A stretch of 54,357 nucleotides of DNA from an uncultured Pseudomonadales bacterium (GTDB taxonomy: Bacteria > Pseudomonadota > Gammaproteobacteria > Pseudomonadales > Azotimanducaceae): assembly GCA_964481245.1 (NCBI GenBank), contig CAYZUV010000001.1:1-54357 (forward strand), in the 5' to 3' direction. Each line of letters begins with the position of its first letter. Position 1 is the first letter of the stretch. The notes beneath the pieces are model-generated. The model was not told where the DNA came from. It did not search any database and saw nothing but the letters and a program-made list of their open reading frames with translations. The position numbers and the translations under genes are program-made. This document shows, piece after piece, positions 15,537-54,200 of this stretch.

Positions 15537-15588
15537 GTTCTGAATAAAAAAATAGATCCCGCGAGGTGGCGAACAAAAAGGGGGCGTC

Positions 15589-25497: not shown

Positions 25498-25507
25498 ACG
25501 TAATCAG

Positions 25508-27585: not shown

Positions 27586-27687
27586 CGGGTCTTTTGGCTA
27601 GTGAAACATTTGATGGGCAGAAAGGCGGCATGATCTTGATTAGTTCGAATTGCGTAATCCACGAAGCTGGGCGGGGGAGTATTACCC

Positions 27688-32027: not shown

Positions 32028-32471
32028 GGGTGCAAGAATGTAAGGATTGGCTAGGAGGTCTCTGATCCGGCCTCGGTTGCGTTGACAGCACTCGCACGTA
32101 TTGCAGACGGTCCGCAGCAAGGGTCAGCCCCGACTGCAACTACGGGTAGAGTGCCCACGTGACCCTTTAGCGAGTCGAGGGTTGATTGGGGACTCGTAGT
32201 CCGACGGAGTGAGCAGTTAGGTTGAACGAGGTGCTATTCCAGCCGAACTTCTCACCTAACATCGAGGTCCAGACGCCTCGCGGTGACTCTCCAAGAGCCG
32301 AAGCGTTGCACGGGGTCGCTCTGGCACTGAGGTTTGGAACGGCTCCACTCGGAACGAATCCCCGCCAGATCCGCGCAGTGTGGTAGGAGGGTTTGGAAGC
32401 ACGCCAGCCATTGAATTTGAACGAGGTATGAGGTGTGTGGTCTTTTTTCTTTGGTTCGGGAGCCACGTCCG

Positions 32472-34094: not shown

Positions 34095-34265
34095 GCCAGT
34101 GCGCAGACGCTTTGGATGAATCAAAGATACGCGGACACAATGTCGAGCGTCACAAAAGCCATGGGTGACCATCGCAAAAGACTGATTTCTATTGCAGCGA
34201 TTGACCTACGAGCGGCGCGCACTCGGTGAATGAGATAACAGTGGATCAAAAGGAGAGAGAACCTC

Positions 34266-38256: not shown

Positions 38257-41200
38257 ATGATAGAACTTAAACGCATATTCTTGCGGTTGATTTTGGGGTT
38301 TTACCCAGTGCTTTTTGTGAGTGCGGCGTTTGGTGGGGCATCAGTCAAAATGGTCTGCCCATGTGAGTTCGAGCAGATTGATCAAACTGTGGCGAAGGTT
38401 GAACTCTCGCTTGGTTTTATAGACGCAGTTGAAGCTTCAGACGAACTGAGGCTTGAAGTCGTCCACTTGAAGACTAAAGACCTACTCTCGGGGAGTAGTT
38501 ACTACATTCTGGGTGAGGCCAACCTCGGCGCATTCGATTTCGGACCGGACCCGATCCCAATGAAAGCGCTCATCCCGCTTCGAGCCCAGGAATTAGGTGA
38601 AGGACAACTTGGACTGCTGCTCTGGTCTAATGACAGCGATGTACCTATTGACCAAGTCTTGCTGGGTTCGCAGTCGGTCGCGATCGATGCATCTTACGGC
38701 ATTTGGTCATTTGACAGCCCGAGTATCTTCTTTTCGTCTGGACTGGAATTCGAATTTGGATTAGCCGGCGCGGAACTCAGTATTGGCGATATCCGAAGTC
38801 CTGACCTTGCTGGTCAGGAGGAAACTTGGAATTTGCAAATCGTTGTTGCCGATCAGGAAGGCTCTTACTTTCCCAAAGCTGAATTCGAAGTGACGGTCAG
38901 CTTTGATGCAGATGGTAAGGCTAGCCTCCGTTCAACGATTGATCTCAGCCATGGCTTGGATAGTCATTTGTCTGATTACGCGAACTTCACGGAAGTAGAA
39001 TTGCTCATCTATAGAAATGGCGACTTTTATCTACGCTACTGGTTGGAATCGCTCGCAGGCCAATCGGGCCCGGAACTGGTACCGCTTATCAAAGCGATTG
39101 ACGCGATATCAGATTCAGATGGTGATGGTCTGACAGACTATGTTGAGTCTCTAGTGGGCAGTTCGCCTGAAGCAGTTGATTGGTTGAGCCCGGCTGAGAT
39201 TGAAGTTGCATTTACGTATGGTGCGACAGCCGCTGAAGCCTTTGGGGATGATTTGAACGCGAGATTGGCTCACGTGATTGACGTGGCTAACTTGGCGTTT
39301 GAAACCTCTGCAGTGCCAGCGCGTGTGGCCATGACGGATCTGATTGAACTTGGCGATGACTCGGGACTGACTGCGGCGGCGCTCATCCCACAGATGGAAG
39401 TTCGAGACGAATTGTTCGCGGATCTAGATGCAAGATTCACCCGAAAACCCGATTTGATCATTCATCTCGGGCTCATTGATGTCATCGATACGGGCGGTCT
39501 AGCCAACCTTCAGGGCGGATTGAACGATGGCATATTCGACGGAGCGACTTACGCTGCAAGAGGATCCAACGTAGGTGTCGTCGGACTTGATAATTCGGAC
39601 ACGACCCTTGTGCATGAGGTGGGTCATCTCATGGGGCTTGATCACTCTCGAGTCCAAGGCACAGCAGATGGTGCCTTTCCTTGGTCTTTGGGGCATGGCG
39701 TTGACGCAGCATTCGTTACGATCATGGCTTACGCGTCGGAATTTTCAGATGCGGCAGAAGTCGCCAATTTTTCAACGCCCACGCTGATCTGCGATGGCGC
39801 AGACGCGTTGTGTGGGGTGAATCGTGCGGATCTCATTCTTGGTGCGGATGCCGCCCGCTCTCTTGCAATTACTGCATTTCAAGTGGCTGCGACATCAAAC
39901 GGTTTCACGCCTGTTATTCAATTGATAGGTGGGCCGGAGGTCACGGTTTCAGATGCTGAGGCGATAGCCGAGCTGGTCTTTACCATTTCAGATGCTGAAG
40001 ATGGTGATTTAACTACGGCTGCTGAGCGGACACTCGCCGCCTCAGCGGAAGAAGGCTTTGATTACGTTCAGACCATTCGAGTCACCGATTCGGATGGTAA
40101 TTCCGTAGAGGCCGCGCGCCGCATCAAAGTCGATGGTAGCCTGGCCTCAGGTGGTGACACGGTTGGAGGCGCCAGCGACGAGGGGTCGACTGATGCGAGT
40201 GATAGCGGAGGTTCCTCCGACGCAGGGGATGATGACGGAGTTGGCTCCGGTGGGGGTACTGATGCTGGGGTTGGCTCGGATGATACCGACGGTGATGGCT
40301 TGCCAGATGATCGGGACCCAGAGCCTGACATCGACAATTCAGAACAGCTTGCCCACTACCTCTGGGTGAAGGATAGGATGACCTGGCTAGAGGCCAGAGA
40401 CTATGCCAAGGCTCAAGGTGGATACCTCGCGTCGATTAGCAGCCAGTTAGAAAACGATCTGATCTACGCGATCGTCAGCGAAGGGTTTGACGAGAACTCG
40501 TATCAAACGCTCGGATACGCTGACGATGGGGGTAGCGCAACCTATGTGTATATCGGCGCCTCTGACCGAGCCGAGGAGGGCACGTTTGTTTGGGAGAGCG
40601 GAGAAGCCTTCAGCTTTAAAAATTGGGGGAAGGCAGAACCTGACAATTACGACGGCAATCAAAATGTGGTCGGCTTGGCGCTCGAAAACTGGCCCTATCA
40701 AGCGAGTGACAGCGATGCCTTTGGCCTAACGAGTCAGTGGAATGATATTAGCGAGACAAACGAACTGACATTCGTTATTGAATTCGATGAGGCTCAAACG
40801 GGCGGCACTGACGGGGGCTCGGGCGGGGGTACGACGGATTCGGGTGAGACGGATGGCGGCTCAACTGACGATGGGGAGACCGACTCGGGCACAACCGATG
40901 GAGGAGGCACCAGCGGAGGGACGACTGATAGCGGCGGAAGCGACGGCGGTACGGACGGCGGAACCACAGATAACGGTTCCACGGATGGCGATACAACGGG
41001 TGGTGACTCGGGGTTCGAGAGCGAAGCAGGGATCCTAGATATTGATGGCGATGGCAAGCGAGCTGCGCTTTCGGACGGTCTACTCATTATTAGACACTTG
41101 TTTGGGTTTCAGGGCACTTCTCTCATCAGCGGTGCCGTAAGTCAGAGTGCCATGGTGACAGAAGCCGTCGATATCGCCGCGATTATTGAATCTCACAGAC

Positions 41201-43065
41201 AAGATTTCGACATCGATGAAGATGGAGAGACTAAGCCGCTGACCGATGGCTTACTGATTATTCGTCATTTGTTTGGCTTCGAGGGGGCATCACTTGTCGC
41301 CGGAGCCACGAGTGCAAATAGCGCACTGACCGCGGCAGAAATCGCTGCGAACTTAGAGGCATTGGAGTCTTACACGGATGACGGCTCAGGTGGCGGCACC
41401 ACAGACGATGGCGAAGTCGACGCGGGTGGCACAGACAATGGATCGGGAACCTCCGATGGGGGGACTTCGACGACGGTTGATGTACTACTCAAGGTCACTT
41501 ATGACCGAGTCAATCCGGTGACCGATTTGAGTAATGGTTATTACCAGGCGAAGCTCGATTATGATGCCATCGAGTCCCTACCAGGTCGCTTTTTGAGCGT
41601 CGAGGTCATCGACGCTGACACTGACCAAACGTTCGATGGTGATTGGATGACCAGTGCTGAAGGGTTGGCATCAGGCCAATTGCCGGTTGATCGTTCGTTC
41701 TATTTCAAGATTCGCGCGAAAAGCGAGGTGTCAGACGCACAAGCGAAATGGTCGGTCAGTGTTCACGATAACCAGGGCAGCATCAATGTCGCTTCTTATC
41801 CGCAGTACGTCGCGATCTCGGATACGTTTACGACCAGTGCCGACCGTTCGATCGAAGTCGCGATCAAGAGCGGCTGGACAGGCACAGGTTACACGGCGGA
41901 GCGGGCCGCGGCGCCCTTCGCCATCATCGACACCATAATTGATGCCATGGGGTATATGGCGCGCAATTCGAGCGGTTTGGAGTACCCACCGCTCGAAATT
42001 TATTGGAGCAAAGACAACACTATCGCAAAAATCGGCACATCGTTTTACTCGGGAGGGGTAATATACATCCTGGGTGGCGTCGATGAGGACACCGACGAAT
42101 ACGACGAGCACGTCATTGTTCACGAGTGGGGCCATTACCTCCAAGACCGACTGTCACGAGACGATAGTCCAGGTGGCCCCCATGGCTCAGGTGATATTCT
42201 GGATCCAAGAATCGCCTTCTCTGAAGGTTGGGCTAACGCGTTATCTGGAATCGTTTTGGGCGATTCTGATTACAAAGACACCAATGGTGCAGACCAAGCC
42301 GAAGGTTTCTTCTTGCCTATGGAAGAAGGATTCCCCTCTAGCGTGGTTGAAGTAACCGCTGGATGGTTTTCTGAGGACAGCGTTGCAGAGATCGTTCTCG
42401 ATCTTTTTGACGGGAACAATGATGCGGAAGACGCGGACACAGTCTCGTTGTCGATAGCTGAGATGACTAGCGCGTTGGTTGATAAGGTGCCTGATACACC
42501 CGTAGCAACCACGATATTTAGTCTCGTGACGCCGCTTATCTCAGCGAACCTGGATCAAGAAACTGCGATCAGGGCGCTCCTGAAAAACCATAGCATCGCC
42601 CTGGAAGCAGGTGAGATAGACGTCTACGGGAGTCACGAACTGGTTGTTAGTGGTGGCGTTACCGACAACGCGCTGCCCATTTTTGCTCCTATAACTGTTG
42701 ACGGCGAGGCAGTTCGAGTCTGTCAGGACAACACACATACACCAGAGGACTACGTTGCCTCAGAACCCGATGCCAACAAGTTAGGCAACCGAACCTTGGG
42801 TAGGTTTTCAGTGACTGAATCTGGCAGCTTTGTTTTCTCAGCGACGTCGGGTGTTCAAGGCGGGTTGGGTCGTTCCGACGATCCTGATTTATTGGTCTAC
42901 AAACTGGGGCAACAAATTGCCTATAACAGTAATTCTGGATCAGTGAGCGAATCTTTAGATGATTTGACGGTTGGAGAGTACTGGTTCGTGCTCTATGACT
43001 ACGGATTCCTGGCTGGCAAGCAATCCTCTGCGCCTTGCCAGTTAGTGGAGATCAACAGAAAATGA
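38257..43065 (+). CDS. 1602-aa secreted multidomain protein: metzincin protease, C-type lectin, dockerin-like pair, second HExxH protease, PPC domain
   Basis: Signal peptide after the ATG at 38257. 'HEVGHLMGLDH' (39613-45) with Met-turn 'TIMAY'. CTLD 'WLEARDYAKAQGGYLASI...EPD...WNDIS'. Two 'DIDGDG....L.DGLLIIRHLFGF' segments. 'HEWGH' (42121-35) with downstream 'EGWAN'. C-terminal PPC-like 'GEYWFVLYDY'. Confidence 0.8.
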   Translation: MIELKRIFLRLILGFYPVLFVSAAFGGASVKMVCPCEFEQIDQTVAKVELSLGFIDAVEASDELRLEVVHLKTKDLLSGSSYYILGEANLGAFDFGPDPIPMKALIPLRAQELGEGQLGLLLWSNDSDVPIDQVLLGSQSVAIDASYGIWSFDSPSIFFSSGLEFEFGLAGAELSIGDIRSPDLAGQEETWNLQIVVADQEGSYFPKAEFEVTVSFDADGKASLRSTIDLSHGLDSHLSDYANFTEVELLIYRNGDFYLRYWLESLAGQSGPELVPLIKAIDAISDSDGDGLTDYVESLVGSSPEAVDWLSPAEIEVAFTYGATAAEAFGDDLNARLAHVIDVANLAFETSAVPARVAMTDLIELGDDSGLTAAALIPQMEVRDELFADLDARFTRKPDLIIHLGLIDVIDTGGLANLQGGLNDGIFDGATYAARGSNVGVVGLDNSDTTLVHEVGHLMGLDHSRVQGTADGAFPWSLGHGVDAAFVTIMAYASEFSDAAEVANFSTPTLICDGADALCGVNRADLILGADAARSLAITAFQVAATSNGFTPVIQLIGGPEVTVSDAEAIAELVFTISDAEDGDLTTAAERTLAASAEEGFDYVQTIRVTDSDGNSVEAARRIKVDGSLASGGDTVGGASDEGSTDASDSGGSSDAGDDDGVGSGGGTDAGVGSDDTDGDGLPDDRDPEPDIDNSEQLAHYLWVKDRMTWLEARDYAKAQGGYLASISSQLENDLIYAIVSEGFDENSYQTLGYADDGGSATYVYIGASDRAEEGTFVWESGEAFSFKNWGKAEPDNYDGNQNVVGLALENWPYQASDSDAFGLTSQWNDISETNELTFVIEFDEAQTGGTDGGSGGGTTDSGETDGGSTDDGETDSGTTDGGGTSGGTTDSGGSDGGTDGGTTDNGSTDGDTTGGDSGFESEAGILDIDGDGKRAALSDGLLIIRHLFGFQGTSLISGAVSQSAMVTEAVDIAAIIESHRQDFDIDEDGETKPLTDGLLIIRHLFGFEGASLVAGATSANSALTAAEIAANLEALESYTDDGSGGGTTDDGEVDAGGTDNGSGTSDGGTSTTVDVLLKVTYDRVNPVTDLSNGYYQAKLDYDAIESLPGRFLSVEVIDADTDQTFDGDWMTSAEGLASGQLPVDRSFYFKIRAKSEVSDAQAKWSVSVHDNQGSINVASYPQYVAISDTFTTSADRSIEVAIKSGWTGTGYTAERAAAPFAIIDTIIDAMGYMARNSSGLEYPPLEIYWSKDNTIAKIGTSFYSGGVIYILGGVDEDTDEYDEHVIVHEWGHYLQDRLSRDDSPGGPHGSGDILDPRIAFSEGWANALSGIVLGDSDYKDTNGADQAEGFFLPMEEGFPSSVVEVTAGWFSEDSVAEIVLDLFDGNNDAEDADTVSLSIAEMTSALVDKVPDTPVATTIFSLVTPLISANLDQETAIRALLKNHSIALEAGEIDVYGSHELVVSGGVTDNALPIFAPITVDGEAVRVCQDNTHTPEDYVASEPDANKLGNRTLGRFSVTESGSFVFSATSGVQGGLGRSDDPDLLVYKLGQQIAYNSNSGSVSESLDDLTVGEYWFVLYDYGFLAGKQSSAPCQLVEINRK
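40350..40790 (+). other. C-type lectin-like domain (cysteine-free, EPD / WND motifs)
   Basis: 'MTWLEARDYAKAQGGYLASISSQLENDLIY', 'YIGASDRAEEGTFVWESGEAFSFKNWGKAEPDN', 'WNDIS'. Confidence 0.65.
41035..41370 (+). other. dockerin-like duplicated Ca-loop/helix module (copy in the giant protease)
   Basis: 'LDIDGDGKRAALSDGLLIIRHLFGF' and 'FDIDEDGETKPLTDGLLIIRHLFGF'. It has the same architecture as 28665-28995. Confidence 0.55.
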
Positions 43066-43628
43066 GAATGACGAATTTAAAATGTATGCGCTGGTTAGCA
43101 CAAATGCTCATTCTTGGTGTCAGTCTGGGATTAGCGGGTTGCTTAGATGGAAATTTTTCAGCAGCCACACTTGAGCCAATCGCAGTGATTGAAACGGATT
43201 GGCCCAATATGGATCTCCGTAAAGGTAAAACACAAGGTCCGATACAGCTTCGATATAGGCTAGAGGAGTACGTCGGCAGAGATTTTAGAGTTGTGGTCTC
43301 CGCGCGCTCGTCACTTAAGGGTCTTGGCCCATGGCAGATGGAACTGACAGGAGCTAAGGTGCCGAAACTAATCGATTCGACGAGTCAATTGCAAAAAATT
43401 GCACAAGAGGGGGAACCCCCGTCGGTCTCTCGAACGTTTGCGTTCAAGGATTCAAGCGAAGAGTTTGAGTCAGTTTCGGTCAGAGTGCAGGTTGTAGTAG
43501 GTGATCAGTTGGCCAGTAGAACGCTCAATGTTCGACTTGATCCAAGTATTGATGAGATGCCCGTAAGACTTTGCACTCCGAGTGAAGCCTGTGGCCGCTT
43601 TTTTAAAGCCGAGACACGAGTTGAATGA
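43062..43628 (+). CDS. lipoprotein of unknown function, translationally coupled to the protease gene
   Basis: Lipobox 'LGLAGC'. Its ATG overlaps the protease TGA (ATGA at 43062-43065). Confidence 0.6.
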   Translation: MRMTNLKCMRWLAQMLILGVSLGLAGCLDGNFSAATLEPIAVIETDWPNMDLRKGKTQGPIQLRYRLEEYVGRDFRVVVSARSSLKGLGPWQMELTGAKVPKLIDSTSQLQKIAQEGEPPSVSRTFAFKDSSEEFESVSVRVQVVVGDQLASRTLNVRLDPSIDEMPVRLCTPSEACGRFFKAETRVE

Positions 43629-43744: not shown

Positions 43745-46700
43745 ATGTTTAAATCTTATCAATTCTTTAAAAATATGGTTTTGTCGTTGATTTTCGCAGC
43801 TGCTGCGAGCGGTGCGCTGGCAGCAGAACAAAAAATCACAACCGATCCAAGCAACACGGATGTCAAGGCAGGACAGACAGGTATAGCTTTGGCCCTAGGT
43901 TATTCCTCTACTGATAATGAACAAACGACTGGCCTGGGAGTGAAGATTTTCTTTGACTCGACGCAGGTAACATTTGTCAGCCTTGCTTCGAGCGCGGAGG
44001 TTGAAGACTTTATCATCGGAATCACCGAAACCCCCGATTCGATATCCACGGATGACAAAGATCTTGATGGCGATCCTAAAACTGATAAGTTCGCGAATAT
44101 CGCGGTCAGTAGCTTCAACGGGAAGTTTCCAGGTAGTGGTGACTGGCCGGAAAGTGGGCCTTTGCCTTTCGCCACGATCACCTTCGATTTGGCAACAACT
44201 GCGCAAGAAGACACTATTACTGCCATTAATTATGTCCTTGATGGAGCTGCTGGTTATGACACTGCGGCGGAATCCGCAACGATCACAATTAAGGGTGACG
44301 AAATTCCACCCGAGATCACAGCTTCAGCGACTTCGGTAACCATAGAAGCCGAAGGGGCTTACACACCACTGAGCTCTGAGCAGTTGACCGAATTTCTGGC
44401 AGGCATCTCGGCAAGCGATAATATTCAAGGTGATATAAGTTCCGATTTGGTCGCTACAATAGATGGGGATACAGCTGAACTGTTGCCCGTGGGTGACTCA
44501 ATTATTCAGTACGATGTTAAAGATTCCAGCGGGAATGCCGCGGAAAGTGTCCAGGTTACAGTTACAGTTGTGGATACAACTGGTCCTACAATACTTGGCG
44601 CAGTGGACGTTTCTTTCGAGGCAACGGGACCAAATGGCATTTCAAGCGAGGATCCGACTGTAACCGCGTTTGGGGACTCAGTGACTGCGCTTGACTTGGT
44701 CAGCGGTGAAGTAGAGGTGATCCCAACCGTTGGAGGGGAAGCACTCCCCGAGTACTTCCCTATAGGTACAACCACGGTCGAATTGAGTGCACAGGATGCA
44801 TCGGGTAACCCTACGACAGGGTCATTGGTTGTGACCGTAGTCGACACCACTGCACCGGCGATCGTCTCGGCTGCTGGATTGACACTGGAAGCCACGGGCC
44901 CAACGGGTTACACGGGAACGACCGATGAGGTGACCGCAGCAATTGAAGTCACTGACTTGGTTGATCCAGCCCCGGTGGTCACTTTGGCTGAAGGCGTAAG
45001 CACGCCGTTCCCTCTTGGAGTAACGTCAGTTGCCGTCACAGTGACAGATAGCGCTGGAAATGCGGCCCAGGGTACTGTTCCTGTAACCGTTGCAGATACA
45101 ACAGGTCCAGCGTTTGCTGGCGCCAACACCTTGATTTTGACTGTTGATGAAGAAGTGCCGGTTGCTAGCTCTGATGAACGTGTGGCGGCTTGGCTTGAAG
45201 GCATATCAGCGTCCGACCTGGTCGATGGCGAAGTTGAATTTACTTACTCCGCGCTGCCTGCAGAGTTCCAAGTAGGTGAAACGACGGTCACGTTCACGGC
45301 TTCGGATGCGGCCGGCAACACCACAAAAGAGGAAGTCATTGTGCTTGTTGCGGTAGGGCCGAGCGTCAAGGTCGCGGCTGCGATTACGGTGGTTTCTGTA
45401 GATGGTGAAGCGGTGCCTGCATCGCAGCCGTTGATCGCTGCATTCATCGAAGCAGCAACGGCGACTGATTTCTCAGGCAATACGCTCGATGTAACGAATG
45501 ATGCTCCAGACTCCTTCGCCGTCGGCGAAGAAACGGTGGTGACCTTTACCGCGGTTGATGCCGATGAGCGCCAGGGCCAGAACACCTCGACGGTAACCAT
45601 TGTTGCCGCGAGTGGTGATAAGGATACCGACGGTGATGGCATCGACGACCTGTATGAGGTGGAAGAGGGACTTGATCCCAACGATGCTGAGGACGGGGAA
45701 GGAGATGCAGATGGCGATGGCCGCAGCAATCTGGATGAGTACTTGGAAGGTACCGATCCTAATGCTGATGATGTGAAGCCTGTCGTCACAGCACCAGCAG
45801 ACGTGTCGGCTGACTCGACGGGTCTTGTGACCAAGGTCGCACTCGGGGATGCAACCGCGGAGGATGTATTGGACGGCGAGTTGACGGCAACGCCTGATAA
45901 CCCAGGGCCTTATGCACCAGGTACATATACGATCACGTGGTCAGCAACCGACGCAGCGGGCAATGTCGGTATAGATACCCAGACAGTGACGGTACGTCCT
46001 CAGGTGACGACTGTGCCCAAGCTTCGAACGGCAGAGGGCAAGACTGTGATGCTGGACGTTGTCTTAAACGGTGCAGCGCCCGCCTATCCGGTGGAGATTC
46101 CGGTGACGTTGGGCGGTACCGCAACGGTTGATGAAGACTACACGGTCGATGCTGAGGTGGTCACGATCGCTGAGGGTCGTAAAGGTATGCTGACACTGAC
46201 CATCTTGAATGATGAACTTGAAGGCGAGGGAGCCGAGACCATTGAAGTGATGCTGGTTGACCCTGCAGCCAACGCGGTGCTTGGATCTGCCAAGATGTCG
46301 ACGATCACCATTATTGAAGAAGCAGCACCGCCGGTCTTGAAGATCACGGTGACGCAGGGTGATTCGAAAGGCAAGCGTGTTTCTGCTGGCGGTGGTGCCG
46401 TGAGTGCCATGGTGAGCATTGTTGACCCGAACGGTGAGCACACGATCGATTGGTCTGGATCCAATGAAGGCCTTGAGTCTTCCACCGGCACCGATACGGA
46501 TACGTTCACGTTTGATCCCTCCGCGCTTGAAGCTGGCTCTTATGATCTGATCGCGGTAGTGACCGATAGTGGTATTGCTGATACCACCTTCACCATTGGC
46601 GTTACGGTTCAAGTGACGGCAGAAGAGGTCGAGGCGGACTCTGATGGTGATGGTATTCCTGACAGCAAGGATACGAGTGACCAAGGCAACGTGATCGCGT

Positions 46701-47356
46701 TGAACGCTGATGCCGGAACTGCGGCTGCTCAGGCGGACGAGGGCGTCTCGATCGTGATCGGAGACGTTGCGAATAGCTCAGGCAATGCTGGGATCGGTAT
46801 TACCGAGGAACAACTCGCAACGACACCTGGTGGTGATGATGCGGATTATGATTACCCTGCAGGCATCTTGGACTTCGAGGTTCAAGATCTTGCTGAGCCA
46901 GGTACTTCGTTCAGAATCGTGATCCCGCTTGCTGCTGCCGTCCCAGAGGGTGGTGTGCTCCGCAAATTCACGGAAGCCAACGGTTGGAATGACTTCGTGG
47001 TTGACGACAACAACGCAGTTGCCAGTGCGCTCGGCGAAGACGGCGCCTGTCCGGATCTTGGTTCCGAGCTTTACGTCGCGGGCTTGACAGCAGGAGACAC
47101 GTGTATGCAATTGACGTTGCAGGACGGTGGTCCGAACGATGCTGACGGTGAAGTGAATGGTTCTTACAAAGATCCAAGTGGTATTGCTGAAGCCACGCCT
47201 GTGCAAGTGGTTGAAATCAATGCGGACGGTTACAAGAGTCGTAAGAAAGTAGGTGGTGGTTGTTCGGTGGTCGAAGGCTCAGCCGATACAGGCCTCCTCG
47301 TCTTGTTACTACTTGGTTTGGCAGGGCTGCTGCGACGTCGATTCGTCGCAGCTTAA
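43745..47356 (+). CDS. 1203-aa surface protein: cohesin-like N-domain, HYR/Ig repeats, TSP3 repeats, Calx-beta, C-terminal Cys-containing sorting signal
   Basis: Signal peptide 'LIFAAAASGALAA'. Repeated 'V(V/A)DTT(G/A)P' HYR starts. 'DKDTDGDGIDD...DADGDGRSNLDEY' TSP3. Calx-beta 'GGTATVDEDYT...LNDELEGEGAE'. Tail 'GGGCSVVEGSADTGLLVLLLLGLAGLLRRRFVAA'. Confidence 0.8.
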   Translation: MFKSYQFFKNMVLSLIFAAAASGALAAEQKITTDPSNTDVKAGQTGIALALGYSSTDNEQTTGLGVKIFFDSTQVTFVSLASSAEVEDFIIGITETPDSISTDDKDLDGDPKTDKFANIAVSSFNGKFPGSGDWPESGPLPFATITFDLATTAQEDTITAINYVLDGAAGYDTAAESATITIKGDEIPPEITASATSVTIEAEGAYTPLSSEQLTEFLAGISASDNIQGDISSDLVATIDGDTAELLPVGDSIIQYDVKDSSGNAAESVQVTVTVVDTTGPTILGAVDVSFEATGPNGISSEDPTVTAFGDSVTALDLVSGEVEVIPTVGGEALPEYFPIGTTTVELSAQDASGNPTTGSLVVTVVDTTAPAIVSAAGLTLEATGPTGYTGTTDEVTAAIEVTDLVDPAPVVTLAEGVSTPFPLGVTSVAVTVTDSAGNAAQGTVPVTVADTTGPAFAGANTLILTVDEEVPVASSDERVAAWLEGISASDLVDGEVEFTYSALPAEFQVGETTVTFTASDAAGNTTKEEVIVLVAVGPSVKVAAAITVVSVDGEAVPASQPLIAAFIEAATATDFSGNTLDVTNDAPDSFAVGEETVVTFTAVDADERQGQNTSTVTIVAASGDKDTDGDGIDDLYEVEEGLDPNDAEDGEGDADGDGRSNLDEYLEGTDPNADDVKPVVTAPADVSADSTGLVTKVALGDATAEDVLDGELTATPDNPGPYAPGTYTITWSATDAAGNVGIDTQTVTVRPQVTTVPKLRTAEGKTVMLDVVLNGAAPAYPVEIPVTLGGTATVDEDYTVDAEVVTIAEGRKGMLTLTILNDELEGEGAETIEVMLVDPAANAVLGSAKMSTITIIEEAAPPVLKITVTQGDSKGKRVSAGGGAVSAMVSIVDPNGEHTIDWSGSNEGLESSTGTDTDTFTFDPSALEAGSYDLIAVVTDSGIADTTFTIGVTVQVTAEEVEADSDGDGIPDSKDTSDQGNVIALNADAGTAAAQADEGVSIVIGDVANSSGNAGIGITEEQLATTPGGDDADYDYPAGILDFEVQDLAEPGTSFRIVIPLAAAVPEGGVLRKFTEANGWNDFVVDDNNAVASALGEDGACPDLGSELYVAGLTAGDTCMQLTLQDGGPNDADGEVNGSYKDPSGIAEATPVQVVEINADGYKSRKKVGGGCSVVEGSADTGLLVLLLLGLAGLLRRRFVAA
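43823..44300 (+). other. cohesin-like beta-sandwich candidate at the adhesin N-terminus
   Basis: About 155 aa whose strand pattern recalls cohesins: 'VKAGQTGIALALGY...GLGVKIFFDSTQVTFVSL...FANIAVSSF...PFATITFDL...TITAINY...ATITIKG'. Resemblance by eye only. Confidence 0.3.
47252..47353 (+). other. C-terminal protein-sorting signal (GGGC motif, TM helix, Arg cluster)
   Basis: The tripartite 'GGGCS' / 'GLLVLLLLGLAGLL' / 'RRRF' lies at the extreme C-terminus, 16 nt upstream of a CPBP protease gene. Confidence 0.7.
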
Positions 47357-47372
47357 TTCCCTGGGGGTTGTC

Positions 47373-47837
47373 ATGGCGGGACGGCTTGCCGCAGCCATGT
47401 CACCTCAAGGTTTAGAAAAGAGCGCCCTCCTGGGCGCTTTTTGTTTTTATCTAGTCTTATTTTTTGGTTTTGATATTCAGCCTGACCTTCTGTGGTGGCT
47501 GAGGCAGCCCTTGAATGCGATGGTTCTGATCATTGTCTCGCCCGCATTAGAAGAGTGGATCTTCAGAGGTTGGTTGTTTGATCTGGTTCGGAATTGGAGC
47601 CAAACCCTTAAGCAGGAGCTTCTCAGTGAACGCCTCCTCTCTATCCAAAATGCCGTCACAACGAGTTGCTTCTGCGCACTCCACAGCGTGCTTCGTGACC
47701 CTCTCACGGGGCTGCTTGTCTTGGGCCCCTCACTGCTCCTTGGCTTCATGCGGGATCGTCAGGTCTCGTTACCTGTATTAATGATGATTCATGGAGTCTG
47801 GAATGCTGGTTGGTTCTTCTTTTACCCACCAGGTTAA
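47373..47837 (+). CDS. CPBP-family (CAAX-type) glutamic intramembrane protease, small form
   Basis: All three CPBP motifs are present: 'EEWIFR', 'FCALH', 'HGVWN'. About 4 TM helices, 154 aa. Confidence 0.8.
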   Translation: MAGRLAAAMSPQGLEKSALLGAFCFYLVLFFGFDIQPDLLWWLRQPLNAMVLIIVSPALEEWIFRGWLFDLVRNWSQTLKQELLSERLLSIQNAVTTSCFCALHSVLRDPLTGLLVLGPSLLLGFMRDRQVSLPVLMMIHGVWNAGWFFFYPPG

Positions 47838-48069
47838 TTTGGAGGAGATCTTGCCTCGGATTGACCCACTGATTTCAGAATCCAGCATAAACCTGGGCTG
47901 GGCACGCCCAAGATTGATCGGTGTTCGCTAAATCGAAGTTCAACGCGGCCATACTGAGACCCAGTAGGCCTGAGCGAAGCCGCGGGCTTTACACTCATCA
48001 GTGCCCATAGGCAATGCGAGTTTAATTTGTCACAATGAATCGTTTCAGGTCTCGTTTCAGGAGTGCGCT

Positions 48070-50271
48070 ATGACTCGGTTTTTCTCATCATCACTGCTCT
48101 TCAGTATCGTGTTGGGCAGTGGTGCGGCACTCGCCGCGATCTCGCCAGGACAGCAAGTTGCTCTCCAAGAAAGTCTTGAGGCGGGTGACGGTGCTGGCGT
48201 GACGCTGGCCACCAATCGCATTCTGTCTAGTGGGTTATCGGCTAACGATGTTGGAGCCCTTGAGCAAATCGCATCCTTCCTATCTGAGGCGGGCTATCGA
48301 GATGCAGCTGGCGGTATTCTGGTCAGAGCCGCCGAATTGGTTGACGCACCCAATACAGAAAGCGACCGAGAAACATTGGTGCGTATCGCCGAGGCTTTGC
48401 AGGCGATCAATTTACGCTCGACAGCTCAAACTGTCGCGACCCGGGGTATTAAGGTTACGGGGAAATCACAAAGCGATCAGCTTAATGCGCAAGGTTATCA
48501 ATTACTGGGTGATCTAGCGTTTGAAAACGGTGACCTTGATGCCGCCTCTGAAGCTTATGCGAATGCTTCTGCCAGTCAAACCGCGAGCCTCCCCACGGAT
48601 TTGCTGGTAAGGCAAATTAAATTAGCCGCTAGTCAGGGAAATCGAGCTGAGATCCGTTCAGGTCTTGGTCGTCTTAATGCACGCCTAGTGGTGGAAGTGT
48701 CTACATCTCATTTGCTGGACGTGGCCGCCGCTTTGGTGAACTCCGGTGAGCGCGAGTTTCTTCCAGATGCGCTCTTGCTGATCGAGCGGGCAAGCGCCCA
48801 AGGCGACGCTGGAAATCTTGCCGAGCGGGCGGAGCTCGCACTACTCCGGAGTCAAATATCAGAGGGAATGGGTCAAACGACAGAGGGCCTCAAACAGGCG
48901 CGCGCGGCGCTTGCAGATCTTGGTGATAATGCTTCTCCTGGGCTTGCTTATCGCGTGTATTGGCAGATCGCGCGTCTTCAGAAAGCGTCTGGGGATTTGA
49001 CTGCTTCGATCAAAAATTACGAACGGGCGATAGCGAAGCTTGACGCAATTCGTGGCGTTCTATTGCAAGGCAGTACGCTTGTTTTCAGAGAGAGGGTACT
49101 GCCGGTCTATCAAGAATATTTGGATTTATTGCTTGCGGAGGCTGATCGGCCCAGTGCTAGAGAGGTTTCCTTAGCAAAGGTACAAGCAACGTTAGAAGCG
49201 CTTAGCGCGTCCGAAATTCTCGACTACTTTGATGACAACTGTGTCCTACCACAGAACACGATGAGCCTTACGGATGTTCCCAACGGTACGGCTGTCGTGT
49301 ACTCAGTCACAGTCTCCGAGAAGCCGGTTGTTTTGGTTCGTTCTTCTAGTGGGCTCTACCGATTCGCCACAGGCTCAACCGCATCTGATTTGGAGCGCAT
49401 GGCGCTTGCCTTCAGGGAAAGTATTACCAATCCCGGCACATCTGAGGCGGTGTATCTGAACCAGGCCCAGACGCTTTATCAAAGTCTGCTTGGTGAGGCG
49501 GGTCCTTTTCTTAAAGACGAGGGCATAAAACGCATCATCAGCGTGCCTTCAAGTTATCTTCGACTCATTCCTATGGCTGCACTGCATGACGGCGATTCTT
49601 ATCTCTTAAATCAGTACGAATGGTCGACCACGTTGGGGCTCGGTTTGACCGACGCGTCATCGTTTAAAGCATCGCGAACCAGCGCCTTTTTGGGCGGTGT
49701 TTCTGATGCCGTCCAAGGGTTTGAGGCATTACCCGGGGTCGAGACGGAATTGGCGGGCCTGCGAACCGCGTTGCAAAGTGAGCCGCTTCTCAACGAGCGT
49801 TTTTCAGTTGCAGACGTGACGCGACGGTTGGCCGAAGGGGAGTTCGGCATCGTTCACCTAGCGACCCACGGTTATTTCGATGGGGATCATGCGAATTCGT
49901 TCCTGCTTGCCCATGATGACAAGATCACCCTGGATCGACTCCAGAGCACTGTTGGAGCAAGACGGTTCTCTGGAGACGCCTTGGATTTATTGGTGTTAAG
50001 TGCATGTGAAACCGCCAAGGGCGATGAGCGCGCGGCACTGGGTCTCGCTGGTGTTTCGCTCAAAGCGGGTGCTCGAAGCACGCTGGCTTCGCTTTGGCCC
50101 ATTGCCGATGAGGCAACAGCAAAACTGATGAAAACCTTTTACGAGGGACTGCAAGCGGGAGAAACCAAAGCACGAGCGCTGCAGCTTGCGCAACAATCAC
50201 TCTTGTCTGATCCGGAATGGGCGCATCCGAATTATTGGAGCCCCTATCTGATGATTGGCAATGCGCAGTAA
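48070..50271 (+). CDS. exported TPR-like / CHAT-domain protease-fold protein
   Basis: Signal peptide 'LLFSIVLGSGAALAA', helical-repeat N-half, CHAT C-half with His 'VHLATHG' and Cys 'VLSACETA' and 'ASLWPIAD'. RBS AGGAG lies 6 nt before the ATG. Confidence 0.85.
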   Translation: MTRFFSSSLLFSIVLGSGAALAAISPGQQVALQESLEAGDGAGVTLATNRILSSGLSANDVGALEQIASFLSEAGYRDAAGGILVRAAELVDAPNTESDRETLVRIAEALQAINLRSTAQTVATRGIKVTGKSQSDQLNAQGYQLLGDLAFENGDLDAASEAYANASASQTASLPTDLLVRQIKLAASQGNRAEIRSGLGRLNARLVVEVSTSHLLDVAAALVNSGEREFLPDALLLIERASAQGDAGNLAERAELALLRSQISEGMGQTTEGLKQARAALADLGDNASPGLAYRVYWQIARLQKASGDLTASIKNYERAIAKLDAIRGVLLQGSTLVFRERVLPVYQEYLDLLLAEADRPSAREVSLAKVQATLEALSASEILDYFDDNCVLPQNTMSLTDVPNGTAVVYSVTVSEKPVVLVRSSSGLYRFATGSTASDLERMALAFRESITNPGTSEAVYLNQAQTLYQSLLGEAGPFLKDEGIKRIISVPSSYLRLIPMAALHDGDSYLLNQYEWSTTLGLGLTDASSFKASRTSAFLGGVSDAVQGFEALPGVETELAGLRTALQSEPLLNERFSVADVTRRLAEGEFGIVHLATHGYFDGDHANSFLLAHDDKITLDRLQSTVGARRFSGDALDLLVLSACETAKGDERAALGLAGVSLKAGARSTLASLWPIADEATAKLMKTFYEGLQAGETKARALQLAQQSLLSDPEWAHPNYWSPYLMIGNAQ

Positions 50272-50281
50272 GGGGATGATC

Positions 50282-51832
50282 ATGACGATATTTAAAACAT
50301 TATTGGTTCTCCTCCTCACGCTCATTGCGCACACGATCAAGGCTGACGCTATGGTGGATGGCGTGGTGCTAAAACGTGTGGAGTTCAGTGGTGCAACTGT
50401 TTTTTCGAATCGAGATTTACAGACCGCCCTCCCAGTGAATGAGGGCGATCGCGTCTACGCTGAAGATATATTGGCCATGGTCGATGCGATTACAGCGCTC
50501 TATCAAAATGCCGGTTATATCACCTCGGGTGCAACGCTAAGCAACCAAGATGTGAGCGATGGCATTATTCGAATCCAGGTGATTGAAGGGCAGTTGACGG
50601 ATATTTCCCTTAGCACCACAGGCAGGTTGAGTGATGCATTCGTCCGAGGCAAGGTGAAGGCCAGCACCTCCGGCCCCGTCAAGCTGGCGGATTTACAACG
50701 AGCCATCAGCCGCCTTGAAAGGGAAGACACCATTAGCCACGTGAAGGGTTCCTTAAAACCGGGCACCGAGCGTGGCCAATCTGTTTTAGATCTGGAAGTG
50801 GTCGAAGCTGATGCGTTTTCATTAACGATTGGCGGCAATAATTATCGCAGTCCCAGTGTGGGCGAAGGGCAGGCCGAAGTGGCGCTCGAGCACCTCAACC
50901 TGCTCGGTAGGGGAGATCGACTTAACGTGGGCTATCAAGACACCGATGGCGTGGATGCTTATTCGGTCCGTTATGACTTGCCGCTGCTTCGGCTGAATTC
51001 TCGGCTGGCGGTCTTCCACGCCAAAGGTGACACCCTGGTCGTTGAAGAGCCGTTTGACGAAATTGCGCTCGAGAGTGAGACCGACACCACGGGTTTCCAG
51101 TTAACAAGCGCCTGGAAAGATACCGGCACGCATCGCTTCTCGAGCATTATCGGCTATGAGCAAAAAGAGAGCATGACCACACTCCTAGGGATGCCATTTG
51201 ATTTCTCTCCCGGGTCTCGAGGGGGCGTTACGGAAGCCTCGGTTTGGAGCCTGGGCGTTGAATGGGCGAGGAGCGGCGATAACAGTGGTTTTGCGCTGCG
51301 ACTCACTGGCCGAATGGGCAGTGATGAAAATGATGCGCCCAATCCGCAGGGGGTTGATGGCGATTTCAGCGTGTTTCGTTTGCAGAGCCAATACGTGCAT
51401 CGCATAGACGAAGCTTGGCAACTGAATTTTGGTCTGAGTGTTCAGGAAACCGGTGACACCCTGCCAGCCTTCGAGCGAATCGCGCTCGGAGGGCACGATA
51501 CGGTCAGGGGCTACCGTGAGAACCAGCTGCTTAAAGACTCAGGCGTCCTGTTCAATGCGGGTATGACGCTCGCGCTTCTTCAACCCGACGCACCACGGTC
51601 CCTCGGGGTGAAAGGGCACCTCTTCTATGACTATGGCCGAGGCGAGAACAGCGAAGTATCACTGAATGTTGACACGAAAGGCGACATCAGCAGTGTCGGC
51701 GTGGGGATTACGGCGACGTATGCCGGACTGACATTCAGGCTGCAAAAGGCACATCGGCTGGGCGACAAGTCCACGCTGGGTGATACGTTTCAGGACAATG
51801 GTATTCATTTGGGGGTGAGCTATGAATTCTAA
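50282..51832 (+). CDS. ShlB/FhaC/HecB-family two-partner secretion transporter (TpsB)
   Basis: Signal peptide, POTRA 'LKRVEFSGATVFSNRDLQ', 16-strand barrel-like C-half 'RGYRENQL', terminal 'VSYEF'. Confidence 0.85.
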   Translation: MTIFKTLLVLLLTLIAHTIKADAMVDGVVLKRVEFSGATVFSNRDLQTALPVNEGDRVYAEDILAMVDAITALYQNAGYITSGATLSNQDVSDGIIRIQVIEGQLTDISLSTTGRLSDAFVRGKVKASTSGPVKLADLQRAISRLEREDTISHVKGSLKPGTERGQSVLDLEVVEADAFSLTIGGNNYRSPSVGEGQAEVALEHLNLLGRGDRLNVGYQDTDGVDAYSVRYDLPLLRLNSRLAVFHAKGDTLVVEEPFDEIALESETDTTGFQLTSAWKDTGTHRFSSIIGYEQKESMTTLLGMPFDFSPGSRGGVTEASVWSLGVEWARSGDNSGFALRLTGRMGSDENDAPNPQGVDGDFSVFRLQSQYVHRIDEAWQLNFGLSVQETGDTLPAFERIALGGHDTVRGYRENQLLKDSGVLFNAGMTLALLQPDAPRSLGVKGHLFYDYGRGENSEVSLNVDTKGDISSVGVGITATYAGLTFRLQKAHRLGDKSTLGDTFQDNGIHLGVSYEF

Positions 51833-54200
51833 ATGGCAGTTAAAAGCGGCTTTGCTTGGTTGCCTAGCGGCAACGCCCCTTCATGCGGAAATCACGCTGC
51901 AAGACACTGGGCAGACCCTGACCGGGGATATGCAAATCACCCAAGAGATGGGCATAACAAAAGGCACCAACCTGCTGCATAGTTTTCTCGCCTTTAACAT
52001 TGATGCTGGCGAGTCTGCGACCTTCTCTGGAAGCAATAGCATCACCAACATCATTGCGCGGGTAACTGGCGACTCAGCGAGTCAGATTGATGGTCTTTTG
52101 CGCTCCACCATTTCGGATGCGAACCTATTTTTGATTAACCCGAATGGCATCGCCTTTGGCGAAGGGGCTAGCATCGATATTAACGGTAGCTTGCATTTGT
52201 CAACGGCCAACAGCATCACCTTTGCAGATGACTCAGTGCTGTTGGTCTCTGATACCGGAGCATCTGGGCTTACCACGGCTGCACCTTCTGCTTTTGGGTT
52301 TGGTGAGGCGAGTGCCGGCATCACGTTTAATGGCACCCAGATCTCCGTTGAAGATGGCGATAATCTTGATGCGATCTCACTGATTGGCGGCGACGTCACA
52401 TTGACTGAGAGCTCGATCAGCCTCTCAGGTGGTGATATCGAAATCGTAGCCACCATGGGTGAAACCATGGTCTCGCTTGAGCAGGCAGCGCGCGATTACT
52501 CGATGATCTCACTAGGCGACATTACCGTCAGTAACGAGGCAGCCGACGGTAACAAAATTGATTTGGATGCCAGCGGCGAGTCCGCCGGTGCGATCCATTT
52601 AGCGGGCGATACGGTCACCCTCGATGCTGCGTTTGTGTTTTCAGACACCCAAGGCGTAGGGACTGGCGGAATGCTTGAAGTGGTCGCGGAAACCGAACTC
52701 GTCATGAGCAATGGCGCGCGCATCACGACCGATACCACCGACGGCGGCATCGGCGGCGACGTGAATATTAATGCAGGGTTGGTTTCAATGATTGGTAAGA
52801 ACACTGCGATTGCAGCGAGCACCGTTGAGGCAGGCGGTGCGGCGGGTGAAATCATGATCACGGCTGATGCCATCAGCATTGAAGATCAAGCCCAAATTAG
52901 TTCGGTTTCAAGTACTACTTCCGATGGTGGTGACATTACTTTGAATACGGGCACATTAGTATTGGCCTCTGGGGGGCAAATAACTGGCCAGGCAGCCTCT
53001 CGAGGGGACGGAGCGAACGTAACTATTGTCGCGTCTCAGAGTGTAAGCATCGATGCGACTGGTCTGGCCGCAGGAGATGCTTCAGGTATTCGAGTTGATA
53101 GTATTAATTTCTTGCCGTTTTTTACCGGTGGTGATGCGGGCGATATCACAATTACTAGCCCAAAGCTGACGCTTACAGGGGGAGCTGTAATTACAGCAGA
53201 AGCCATTTTGCCGTCTTCAGGCGCACCTGGCGCGATTACACTGAATGTGGACGATTTGAATATTCAGAGCGGTAGCACGGTATCAACGTTGACGGCTTCG
53301 AATGCGGATGCAGGCGCAATCACCATCAATGCGAACACTATCGATCTAGCGGGTGCCGGTTCTGGACTCAACTCCACCGCACGTCGAGGCGGTCAGGGTG
53401 GCAGCATTATTATTAACGCAGCTGAACTCGCTATGTCGGGTGGGGCTGTGGCAGACACTTCAACCGAAGCGGAGGGCGGCGCGGGTGAGATTGTGATCAA
53501 TCTCAGTGGCGGCTTTGTTTTGACGGGCAGCGGTACGACTCTCGCGAGCCAAAGTTCGGACGCGGGTCTCGGGGGCTCAATCTCTGTTGCGGCTGAGACC
53601 ATTCAATTCCTCGACAACGGCGTGCTCAGCGTGACGGCAAATGGCGGCGGCGACGCGGGCAATATCACACTCGCGGCGACAGACCGGCTCCACATTTTTG
53701 ATGGCGCCGAAGTTCAAACCAACGCGGTGAATTCCGGTGGCGGTAATATCACGATCGAAGTCATCGATACGATCTATCTGCGTGATGCTACGCTCACCGC
53801 CTCAGCGGGCGGCAGCGAAGCTGGCGACAACGGTGGGAATATCTTTATTGACCCCATCTTTTTAATTCTCGATAACGCGTCGATCGTGGCTCAAGCCTTC
53901 GCGGGTAACGGGGGCATCATTGAGCTGATCTCTGAAAACTACATTGCGGACATTAATAGTTACCTCGATGCCTCGAGTGAACTGGGTAATGATGGCGAGG
54001 TCAGAATTACGTCTCTTGATAACAGCGTCACTGGCGTACTTGGAGTGCTCAGCGCTGACTTCGATGCGGTTTCAGATATTTCGGGTGATGCGTGTTCTGC
54101 TAGGAATGCTGCGAATCGAAGTAGCCTTATGATAGATCAGCCGATGGGTCGGCTTTCTGCTCCTGGTGATCTGAGAGCTCCCGCCGGAGAAGATTGTTGA
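51822..54200 (+). CDS. TPS-domain (filamentous hemagglutinin N-terminal) beta-helix exoprotein, short TpsA-like
   Basis: Signal peptide. TPS motifs 'NLLHSF..FNI', 'NIIARVTG...SQIDG' and 'LFLINPNGIAFG'. Gly/Asn/Thr-rich beta-helix repeats. It overlaps the tpsB end by 11 nt. Confidence 0.85.
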   Translation: MNSKWQLKAALLGCLAATPLHAEITLQDTGQTLTGDMQITQEMGITKGTNLLHSFLAFNIDAGESATFSGSNSITNIIARVTGDSASQIDGLLRSTISDANLFLINPNGIAFGEGASIDINGSLHLSTANSITFADDSVLLVSDTGASGLTTAAPSAFGFGEASAGITFNGTQISVEDGDNLDAISLIGGDVTLTESSISLSGGDIEIVATMGETMVSLEQAARDYSMISLGDITVSNEAADGNKIDLDASGESAGAIHLAGDTVTLDAAFVFSDTQGVGTGGMLEVVAETELVMSNGARITTDTTDGGIGGDVNINAGLVSMIGKNTAIAASTVEAGGAAGEIMITADAISIEDQAQISSVSSTTSDGGDITLNTGTLVLASGGQITGQAASRGDGANVTIVASQSVSIDATGLAAGDASGIRVDSINFLPFFTGGDAGDITITSPKLTLTGGAVITAEAILPSSGAPGAITLNVDDLNIQSGSTVSTLTASNADAGAITINANTIDLAGAGSGLNSTARRGGQGGSIIINAAELAMSGGAVADTSTEAEGGAGEIVINLSGGFVLTGSGTTLASQSSDAGLGGSISVAAETIQFLDNGVLSVTANGGGDAGNITLAATDRLHIFDGAEVQTNAVNSGGGNITIEVIDTIYLRDATLTASAGGSEAGDNGGNIFIDPIFLILDNASIVAQAFAGNGGIIELISENYIADINSYLDASSELGNDGEVRITSLDNSVTGVLGVLSADFDAVSDISGDACSARNAANRSSLMIDQPMGRLSAPGDLRAPAGEDC

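Follow-up and report, generated by a model that had tools for sequence, protein, structure and literature searches.

The closest described relative of the system reported here is the JDVT-CTERM/MrtJ pair, which was defined in silico (Haft 2023, bioRxiv 10.1101/2023.06.07.544157). In that study, there was one JDVT-CTERM protein per genome, and in 16 of 17 instances a small CPBP protease was encoded adjacent to it; the partial-phylogenetic-profiling (PPP) score was 94.6, versus 41.9 for the next candidate, and the tail carried a near-invariant Asp-Pro about nine residues past its single Cys. Here, we describe a secreted adhesin with a tail of this type and the small protease encoded directly 3' of it, in a 54,357-nt stretch of DNA from an uncultured Pseudomonadales bacterium (contig CAYZUV010000001.1, positions 1 to 54,357 of the forward strand; hereafter, the window). 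The system is already catalogued and published, and the window pair is a new, divergent instance of it.

As in the published family, the window tail is Gly-rich, with a single Cys, an Asp some 8-9 residues further on, then a helix rich in Leu and a cluster of Arg. Immediately 3' lies the gene for a CPBP protease of about 150 amino acids (aa) without any extra domain, and there is a single tail-bearing client nearby. The window pair differs from that family as follows: the protease scores 3.3 bits under the curated cutoff; the tail reads C-x7-D-x-G instead of C-x8-D-P; the host lineage, marine/estuarine and uncultured, has no close relative in the GTDB species genomes; and the client is a HYR adhesin of about 1200 aa, found in a conserved metallopeptidase-lipoprotein-adhesin-MrtJ block.

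The only experimentally supported model comes from MYXO-CTERM and its protease MrtX, in which Cys-dependent cleavage is followed by surface display through the type II secretion system (T2SS). MrtX was reported to cleave MYXO-CTERM in M. xanthus and E. coli, with the Cys being required (Guo, Haft and Wall, mBio 2025, PMC11980579); in the model proposed there, the protein is exported by Sec and anchored by the transmembrane (TM) helix of its tail, an unidentified enzyme, possibly akin to Lgt, lipidates the Cys, and cleavage is followed by T2SS-dependent display at the surface. The window protease has a homologous CPBP catalytic core, and both tails have an invariant Cys before a TM helix and an Arg cluster. 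However, MrtX has about 35 unlinked clients and an extra N-terminal region (seven helices), whereas here one linked client is paired with a minimal enzyme of five helices. MYXO-CTERM often has two Cys (GCGC), compared with one in the window tail, and is universal in the Myxococcota, where the two-gene JDVT/MrtJ neighbourhood was not found.

Eukaryotic Rce1 and archaeal MmRce1 (type II CAAX proteases, PF02517) belong to the same superfamily as the window protease and have the same motifs, EExxxR, FxxxH and HxxxN. They cut just past a lipid-modified Cys near the C-terminus, which for the window enzyme is a prediction. Rce1 trims a prenylated CAAX box in the cytosol by three residues, whereas the window enzyme would remove about 30 residues, including the helix, from an exported protein. 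In the rhombosortase/GlyGly-CTERM and exosortase/PEP-CTERM systems, a tripartite C-terminal tail is likewise cut off by a multi-pass membrane enzyme dedicated to it, whose gene sometimes lies beside that of a single client, but rhombosortase (a rhomboid Ser protease) and exosortase (a Cys transpeptidase) belong to enzyme families unrelated to the window CPBP protease.

The adhesin tail and the adjacent protease

The features of the pair are as follows.
43745..47356, + strand: client adhesin, 1203 aa, secreted (translation; Pfam and NCBIfam matches)
46841..47188, + strand: choice-of-anchor U domain, adhesin residues 1033-1148 (NF041766 choice_anch_U, 42.2 bits versus a cutoff of 32)
47252..47353, + strand: JDVT-CTERM-type tripartite tail, adhesin residues 1170-1203 (NF033191)
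47373..47837, + strand: mrtJ-like gene, 154-aa minimal CPBP/Rce1-type glutamic intramembrane protease (NF033192, PF02517)

The adhesin open reading frame (ORF) extends from 43697 to 47356 (+), with the ATG at 43745 as the likely true start, giving 1203 aa; a gene for the same 1203-aa adhesin is called on an independent contig (L009). By eye, the N-terminus, MFKSYQFFKNMVLSLIFAAAASGALA|AE, resembles a Sec-type signal peptide. The protein contains HYR (Pfam, 73 bits, five stretches), Ig-like (Big_13) and TSP3 repeats, and its choice-of-anchor U domain is placed shortly 5' of the sorting tail. The C-terminus is KVGGGCSVVEGSADTGLLVLLLLGLAGLLRRRFVAA (over a longer stretch, ...YKSRKKVGGGCSVVEGSADTGLLVLLLLGLAGLLRRRFVAA, followed by the stop codon). 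Located at the extreme C-terminus, the tail has the layout GGGC...TGLLVLLLLGLAGLL-RRR-FVAA and consists of the Gly-rich motif GGGC, which holds its only Cys (Cys1173, codon 47261..47263); Asp1181 (47285..47287), followed by Thr-Gly; a Leu-rich helix (47288..47332); the Arg cluster RRR (47333..47341); and, last, FVAA. The adhesin stop codon ends at 47356 and the protease ATG lies at 47373 on the same strand, leaving a gap of 16 nt.

For the protease, an alternative conserved start, the ATG at 47397, would give 146 aa, and the 194-aa ORF of the ORF list opens 5' of the ATG, at GTG 47253. Three motifs were found, namely EEWIFR (E60-R65, 47550..47567), FCALH (F100-H104, 47670..47684), and HGVWN (H140-N144, 47790..47804). 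Residues E60, E61, R65, H104, H140 and N144 were invariant in alignments of 50 and 66 sequences; F100 was nearly invariant in one family alignment and invariant in the other. An earlier reading of the window from its letters and ORF list (the sequence-only reading) had quoted this adhesin end, from 47252 onwards, and a 154-aa CPBP protein with these three motifs 16 nt further on; translation of the two ORFs reproduced both exactly, 47252 being the start of the sorting tail.

Against the JDVT-CTERM model NF033191 (cutoff 27), the tail scored 28.7 bits within the full protein, 33.4 in the last 85 aa and 35.1 in the last 46 aa, with E = 9e-9 when scanned alone. GlyGly-CTERM (TIGR03501) remained under its cutoff of 15.5, at 10.4-12.1 bits, and PEP-CTERM gave no match in the NCBIfam scan. 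The best CPBP sub-family for the protease was MrtJ (NF033192; 71.7 bits, E = 6e-20), with a lead of about 36 bits over the next-best families, Mrt_core (35.9 bits), MrtP (32.5), MrtS (31.9) and MrtC (31.3); the MrtX model was not matched in the same scan. The Rce1-like family PF02517 was matched at 47.4 bits (gathering score 22.4; E = 2e-12), with EExxxR, FxxxH and HxxxN all present. With 154 aa and no extra N-terminal domain, the protease falls in the range of about 135-165 aa used for a minimal MrtJ, its homologues being mostly of 130-180 aa. An AlphaFold2 model was all-helical, with five long helices (predicted local distance difference test, pLDDT, 93; predicted template modelling score, pTM, 0.86). 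Given the E values of the tail (9e-9), of the MrtJ match (6e-20) and of the Rce1-like match (2e-12), and the recurrence of the adjacent pair in 17 independent metagenome lineages, neither feature is a chance match.

By sequence, the tail belongs to the catalogued JDVT-CTERM family and the protease is a member of the MrtJ family, whose clade has scores on both sides of the curated cutoff; the pair as a whole stands at the edge of both curated cutoffs. The sequence-only reading had left open whether the tail belonged to a catalogued family or was a new variant, and it does belong to one, JDVT-CTERM, as a divergent member that lacks the Asp-Pro. The curated NCBIfam cutoffs miss part of the family, and by them the window protease would be given a generic CPBP name only.

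The tail also passed the MYXO-CTERM model TIGR03901, with 21.1-26.5 bits for a cutoff of 20, and its helix contains no Pro, which is a MYXO-CTERM-like trait (Haft 2023). It could on these grounds be a MYXO-CTERM-type signal, addressed to an unlinked general myxosortase of the MrtX, MrtC or MrtP type, with another role for the mini-CPBP protein. We regard this as most improbable. MYXO-CTERM came second to JDVT-CTERM by 7-9 bits, and the tail, with its one Cys, has no GCGC. On MrtC, MrtP and Mrt_core, the adjacent protease reached 31-36 bits, for cutoffs of 100-250 (31.3 versus 195 for MrtC and 32.5 versus 250 for MrtP), and the pairing with a mini-protease is kept in the 17 lineages. Moreover, a two-gene MrtJ and JDVT-CTERM neighbourhood is reported never to be found in the Myxococcota, where MYXO-CTERM is universal, with dozens of clients per genome (PMC11980579).

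Tails of the JDVT-CTERM type fell into two groups: those with the canonical signature C-x8-D-P, and a marine group, including the window, with C-x7-D-[T/A/F/L/I]-G. Canonical examples with D at +9 and P at +10 are the loci L068, L069 and L078, and canonical tails from remoter soil and sediment metagenome loci read GGGCTIGTDGRSDPSLP.., GGGGCTVGGEGSLDPTLLL.. and GGGCTIGGGGKPDPVLPIL...; marine-type tails of other lineages read GGGGCSVSEGPGDFGLLFLALLG..LRKR, GGGCSASNGSFDLGLILLL.. and GGGGCTVSAGGTDIGLIVLL... Eleven marine-type tails shared, without exception, the residues G-G-C, G (+5), D (+8), G (+10) and L (+14), and one of the Arg residues in the basic cluster. The marine lineages would form a distinct sorting-signal sub-type, C-x7-D-x-G, with Gly in the place of the canonical Pro, which current curated models capture only in part. 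The residues that survive the loss of Pro in this sub-clade (G-G-C, G +5, D +8 and G +10) narrow down the recognition determinants.

The 54-kb window holds only one JDVT-CTERM-type tail. A tail-profile search of 5.8 billion proteins returned five short proteins, four of which were clear C-terminal pieces of this adhesin family and the fifth another fragment, and gave no evidence of further client types.

Conservation of the pair and the proposed sorting pathway

Among the same 5.8 billion proteins, the closest relatives of the protease were five only (51-69% identity), all from marine or estuarine metagenomes; a sixth close lineage is represented by L112/L113. In all close relatives, an orthologous adhesin with a near-identical tail lies 15-41 nt 5' of the protease. 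Two siblings passed the MrtJ cutoff (P0002, 69% identical, 76.5 bits; P0006, 51% identical, 78.2 bits), and the nearest outgroups and relatives scored 73-94 bits. A hidden Markov model (HMM) search of 1.84 billion cluster representatives yielded 698 small CPBP proteins at E < 1e-3, and many homologues carry the NCBI name 'JDVT-CTERM system glutamic-type intramembrane protease'. In GTDB species genomes, the nearest protease was 33% identical, and none of seven loci had a tail-bearing neighbour.

A metagenome scan with a 12-sequence alignment produced 80 loci. The window sits in an uncultured marine/estuarine sub-clade of 13 lineages, in which the adhesin and protease genes are always adjacent. 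Adjacency, with gaps of 1-144 nt or an ATGA overlap, was kept for proteases down to 29% identity, and proteases 33-45% identical to that of the window lay directly 3' of clients with a C-x7-D-x-G tail. In a neighbour-joining tree, the marine-tail proteases formed one branch, apart from those paired with D-P tails, and the client of the marine branch was one orthologous adhesin (42-59% identity). The order lipoprotein-adhesin-MrtJ recurred wherever contigs reached far enough, followed in several lineages by the CHAT-TpsB-TpsA genes described below. MrtJ was the fastest-evolving member: in L042 it was 35% identical, versus 52-62% for the adhesin, CHAT, TpsB and TpsA proteins. Across 46450..47837, compared with L018, L020, L021, L023 and L024, the last 300 aa of the adhesin were 91-95% identical (about 75-90% at the DNA level), versus 51-69% for the adjacent protease. 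A recombination breakpoint at the adhesin/mrtJ junction was considered and rejected, as DNA identity declines gradually and the adhesin is under stronger purifying selection. Judged from these comparisons, the marine-clade pair is a block that descends vertically.

The sequence-only reading had proposed a dedicated sorting pair of one substrate, with a Cys-containing tail, and one CPBP protease, with JDVT-CTERM as a candidate family. This proposal is supported by the JDVT-CTERM match, by MrtJ as the best family, by the adjacency in all tail-carrying relatives and by the single tail in the window. We consider it highly likely that the adhesin and the protease form a dedicated two-gene JDVT-CTERM/MrtJ sorting module from a divergent marine lineage, working like MYXO-CTERM/MrtX. 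In such a pathway, Sec would export the adhesin through its N-terminal signal peptide, and the Leu-rich helix of the tail would keep it tethered in the inner membrane, with RRR facing the cytoplasm. A housekeeping enzyme would modify, probably lipidate, Cys1173, which lies just outside the helix; modification had been placed after cleavage in the sequence-only reading, an order that the current working model reverses (PMC11980579). The adjacent five-helix glutamic intramembrane protease would then recognise the tail within the membrane, and Asp1181 and Gly1183 may serve as intramembrane recognition or helix-weakening residues, in place of the canonical Asp-Pro. Expression would be tuned to keep the substrate greatly above the enzyme, as considered in the next section. 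The basic picture of the JDVT-CTERM/MrtJ system is unchanged; it is known only from comparative genomics, and each defined single-client example offers a test bed for tail recognition by myxosortase-like CPBP enzymes.

It could also be argued that the tail is an uncleaved stop-transfer anchor and the CPBP protein an unrelated neighbour, for example an immunity- or Abi-like protein, since no experiment exists for any MrtJ, the roles of CPBP proteins are varied and poorly known, and several MrtJ-like genes have no adjacent client. This explanation appears quite improbable to us. G-G-C, G +5, D +8 and G +10 are invariant even though the adhesins are 42-59% identical, and a generic anchor needs neither a Cys nor an intramembrane Asp. 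Adjacency, as described above, persists to 29% protease identity, the catalytic residues are intact, and the homologous MrtX does cleave its tail (PMC11980579).

Several observations weigh against the sorting module as we propose it. The Asp-Pro hallmark is missing, as the Asp lies at +8 rather than +9 and is followed by Thr rather than Pro, and on the JDVT-CTERM model canonical D-P tails scored 47-50 bits, compared with 23-35 for marine-type tails and 35 for the window tail. The window protease missed the MrtJ equivalog cutoff of 75 by its 3.3 bits. Foldseek of the AlphaFold2 protease model against the PDB returned nothing at E < 7, and a 66-sequence protease profile found no match among PDB sequences, so that the Rce1-like relationship draws entirely on the Pfam and NCBIfam sequence profiles. 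Among the window ORFs scanned, none was identified as a T2SS or lgt gene. Experimental work on MrtJ was not found in the literature; the sequence-only reading had said as much of these CPBP systems, which still holds for MrtJ and is out of date for the sister enzyme MrtX (PMC11980579). Since the block is co-inherited vertically, co-variation of tail and protease is not independent evidence of co-evolution. Finally, a large group of MrtJ genes of the Thiogranum type and one from Salinisphaera, although so named by NCBI, had no tail-bearing neighbour within about 8 kb, so that adjacency is not a universal feature. Likewise, no client was adjacent on a JGI/NCBI metagenome contig carrying P0164.

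The client of the Thiogranum-type MrtJ would be encoded elsewhere in the genome or be different in kind. These mrtJ genes (L028, L030, L031, L055-L065) were found in a conserved trio, consisting of a DUF302 gene on the minus strand, mrtJ, and a convergent gene for a protein of 104-130 aa ending in ...EPAAYTFTRPLGEL.

A terminator-like hairpin within the protease gene

Leaky intra-operon terminators sit between genes for abundant structural or precursor proteins, such as lantibiotic precursors or major pilins, and the genes for their processing enzymes. Two RNA-level features were identified around the start of mrtJ.
47360..47410, + strand: predicted stem pairing the Shine-Dalgarno-like GGGGG and ATG 47373 with the region of ATG 47397 (minimum free energy and centroid structure)
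47417..47453, + strand: intrinsic-terminator-like element in mrtJ codons 15-27, within the first transmembrane helix, TM1 (consensus scan, folding, conservation)

The hairpin of the second element (47417..47442) begins 61 nt past the adhesin stop. It consists of the stem AAAGAGCGCCC / GGGCGCTTTTT, with the loop TCCT, and is followed by the U-run TTTTTGTTTTT (3' sequence as scanned: GTTTTTATCT). With an 11-bp stem including 6 GC pairs and a 4-nt loop, it has the make-up of a Rho-independent terminator, that is, a GC-rich stem of at least 5 bp, a short loop and a U-run immediately after. It was the sole terminator-like site on both strands of the window in a strict scan that required 5 or more GC pairs and 8 or more T in 12. 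The hairpin encodes K-S-A-L-L-G-A-F-C-F-Y of TM1. It resembles the leaky intra-operon terminators in being a stem-loop with a U-run just past the gene of a substrate that would be highly expressed and far in excess of the enzyme; it differs from them in that it is not intergenic but dual-coded in the TM1 of the enzyme, in a codon register that is fixed across distant lineages.

In six lineages of the window's clade (clade A), mrtJ DNA was otherwise about 60-75% identical, yet the stem was invariant in the five relatives; in the window copy, one A-to-G change replaces an A-U pair with a G-U wobble. Loop sequences differed among these lineages (TCCT, TCTG, TGAT or TTTT). The clade B hairpin occupies the same register with a different stem (GGGGCGCC, A or T, loop, A or T, GGCGCCCT, then a T-run), with compensatory pairs between the stems of the two clades, and the D-P-type loci L068 and L069 have hairpin versions of their own. 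Among 16 adjacent lineages scanned, the loop centre lay exactly 120 nt 5' of the catalytic Glu-Glu codons in 11. The hairpin was found in the window and in L020, L021, L018, L024, L113, L036, L041, L042, L061, L068 and L069. Across ten marine sequences, 88% of cells pair, versus 35-65% when the partners were slid, and in three pairs both partners had changed (two from AU to GC, one from CG to UA or AU). The covariation score was reached by none of 500 shuffles, a control that is uncorrected for relatedness. No Rfam family reached its gathering score at the hairpin, where the matches were sub-threshold and to terminator-containing leaders only. A terminator is mentioned neither in Haft 2023 nor in Guo et al. 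2025; the embedded one appears to be a previously undescribed regulatory detail, and not a new kind of system.

Five of the 16 adjacent lineages lack the hairpin, which counts against the terminator and in favour of the hairpin being a coding by-product of the small-xxx-small motif (S/G-A-x-x-G-A-F), whose Gly and Ala codons are GC-rich and self-complementary. As GGC is the reverse complement of GCC, G-A...G-A easily becomes palindromic, and the hairpin always lies over the same protein motif. We nevertheless find this origin rather unlikely. The L044 locus has the motif G-A-L-L-G-A yet neither a hairpin nor a T-run, so the structure is not an automatic result of the coding sequence. In the stem, the codons for Ser, Ala, Gly, Ala and Phe were each a single codon in all five clade-A lineages compared, whereas only 1 of 29 conserved residues of 4- or 6-fold degeneracy elsewhere in mrtJ used one codon (hypergeometric, about 1e-4), and the loop codon varies. 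Where Ser has changed to Gly in the 5' arm, the 3' arm shows a synonymous GCT-to-GCC change that matches it, and a U-run follows the hairpin in every case. Furthermore, none of 15 unlinked mrtJ genes had a terminator-like site in the hairpin register.

These sequence patterns point to leaky terminator activity at the hairpin, which probably holds protease expression well below that of the adhesin. In the pathway outlined above, it would probably end most transcripts after the adhesin gene, so that the protease would be encoded by read-through transcripts only, and read-through may depend on ribosomes translating into mrtJ. More broadly, we tentatively propose, while giving it somewhat less than an even chance, that JDVT-CTERM/MrtJ pairs carry an undescribed built-in governor of expression, in the form of a dual-coded TM1 terminator that in the window's clade would follow a stem occluding the protease start codon, together with the distinct marine C-x7-D-x-G sub-type; synonymous-site selection and compensatory changes may maintain the hairpin from marine to soil lineages. 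If so, a large ratio of substrate to enzyme would be fixed, and transcription of the protease gene might need ribosomes translating through the hairpin. A functional embedded terminator would also be a clear case of dual coding, in which codons of a transmembrane helix double as an RNA regulatory element, and would explain how the enzyme of a two-gene sorting module is held at catalytic levels.

The stem at 47360..47410 has analogues in the start regions of L020, L021, L018 and L024, with one compensatory swap of GGC/GCC to GGU/ACC, and mononucleotide-shuffle z-scores of the start-region stems ranged from -1.2 to -5.9. The TGA that ends the adhesin gene of clade B overlaps the mrtJ start codon (ATGA). 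Together, the stem and this overlap suggest translational coupling. The stem itself may be a coupling or an occlusion structure, for which the support is weaker than for the terminator.

Neighbouring genes

The other features of the window are as follows.
43062..43628, + strand: 188-aa predicted lipoprotein (MRWLAQMLILGVSLGLAGC), directly 5' of the adhesin (translation)
38257..43065, + strand: 1602-aa secreted metallopeptidase with metzincin/Mep72-like and C-type lectin domains (NF052434 Mep72, 111 bits, partial match)
48001..54200, + strand: CHAT-domain (caspase-like) protein, TpsB/ShlB-type transporter and TPS-domain (FHA N-terminal) exoprotein, 3' of mrtJ
32433..35486, + strand: EACC1-associated-type caspase-domain protein with Sel1/TPR repeats, then an autotransporter beta-barrel protein
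24792..29004, + strand: TlpA-like thioredoxin, 74-aa DUF4266-like lipoprotein (ending GGGCGCN), DUF3570, ApbE and a 438-aa secreted CIVCH-haem/TSP3 protein
10960..17346, + strand: sulfur-oxidation genes for SoxC sulfite dehydrogenase, SoxA and SoxB

The predicted lipoprotein, a conserved neighbour of the adhesin, had no family match in profile scans. By tblastn, L033, L037, L039 and L042 have a counterpart of 29-34% identity in this position, and a gene is called there in L009 and L112. The metallopeptidase is the first gene of the conserved block; L009 has a gene call for it with Pfam hints, and it is partially conserved in L033 and L112. Its C-terminus, ...VEINRK, carries no sorting tail. 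A dockerin- or EF-hand-like repeat of about 15 residues, ALTDGLL(I/L)IR(H/Y)LFGF, occurs twice in the metallopeptidase and twice in the 438-aa TSP3 protein (27688..29004), linking these two secreted proteins of the window across 10 kb.

In a few species, genes for DUF4266, DUF3570 and TlpA stand beside those of JDVT-CTERM proteins (Haft 2023). The TlpA-DUF4266-DUF3570 cluster of the window (24.8-27.6 kb) was set aside as a part of the system, as it lies about 16 kb 5' of the adhesin, with unrelated genes between, and includes no ORF with a tail.

Downstream of mrtJ, the CHAT-TpsB-TpsA genes were syntenic in the distant marine relatives L042 (55-62% identity), L061 and L034, and were absent from this position in L112; they may constitute a separate two-partner secretion module. 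The caspase-domain and autotransporter genes are a further part of the gene content around the sorting pair, which is rich in surface and protease functions. The Sox genes indicate that the window derives from a thiosulfate-oxidising marine bacterium.

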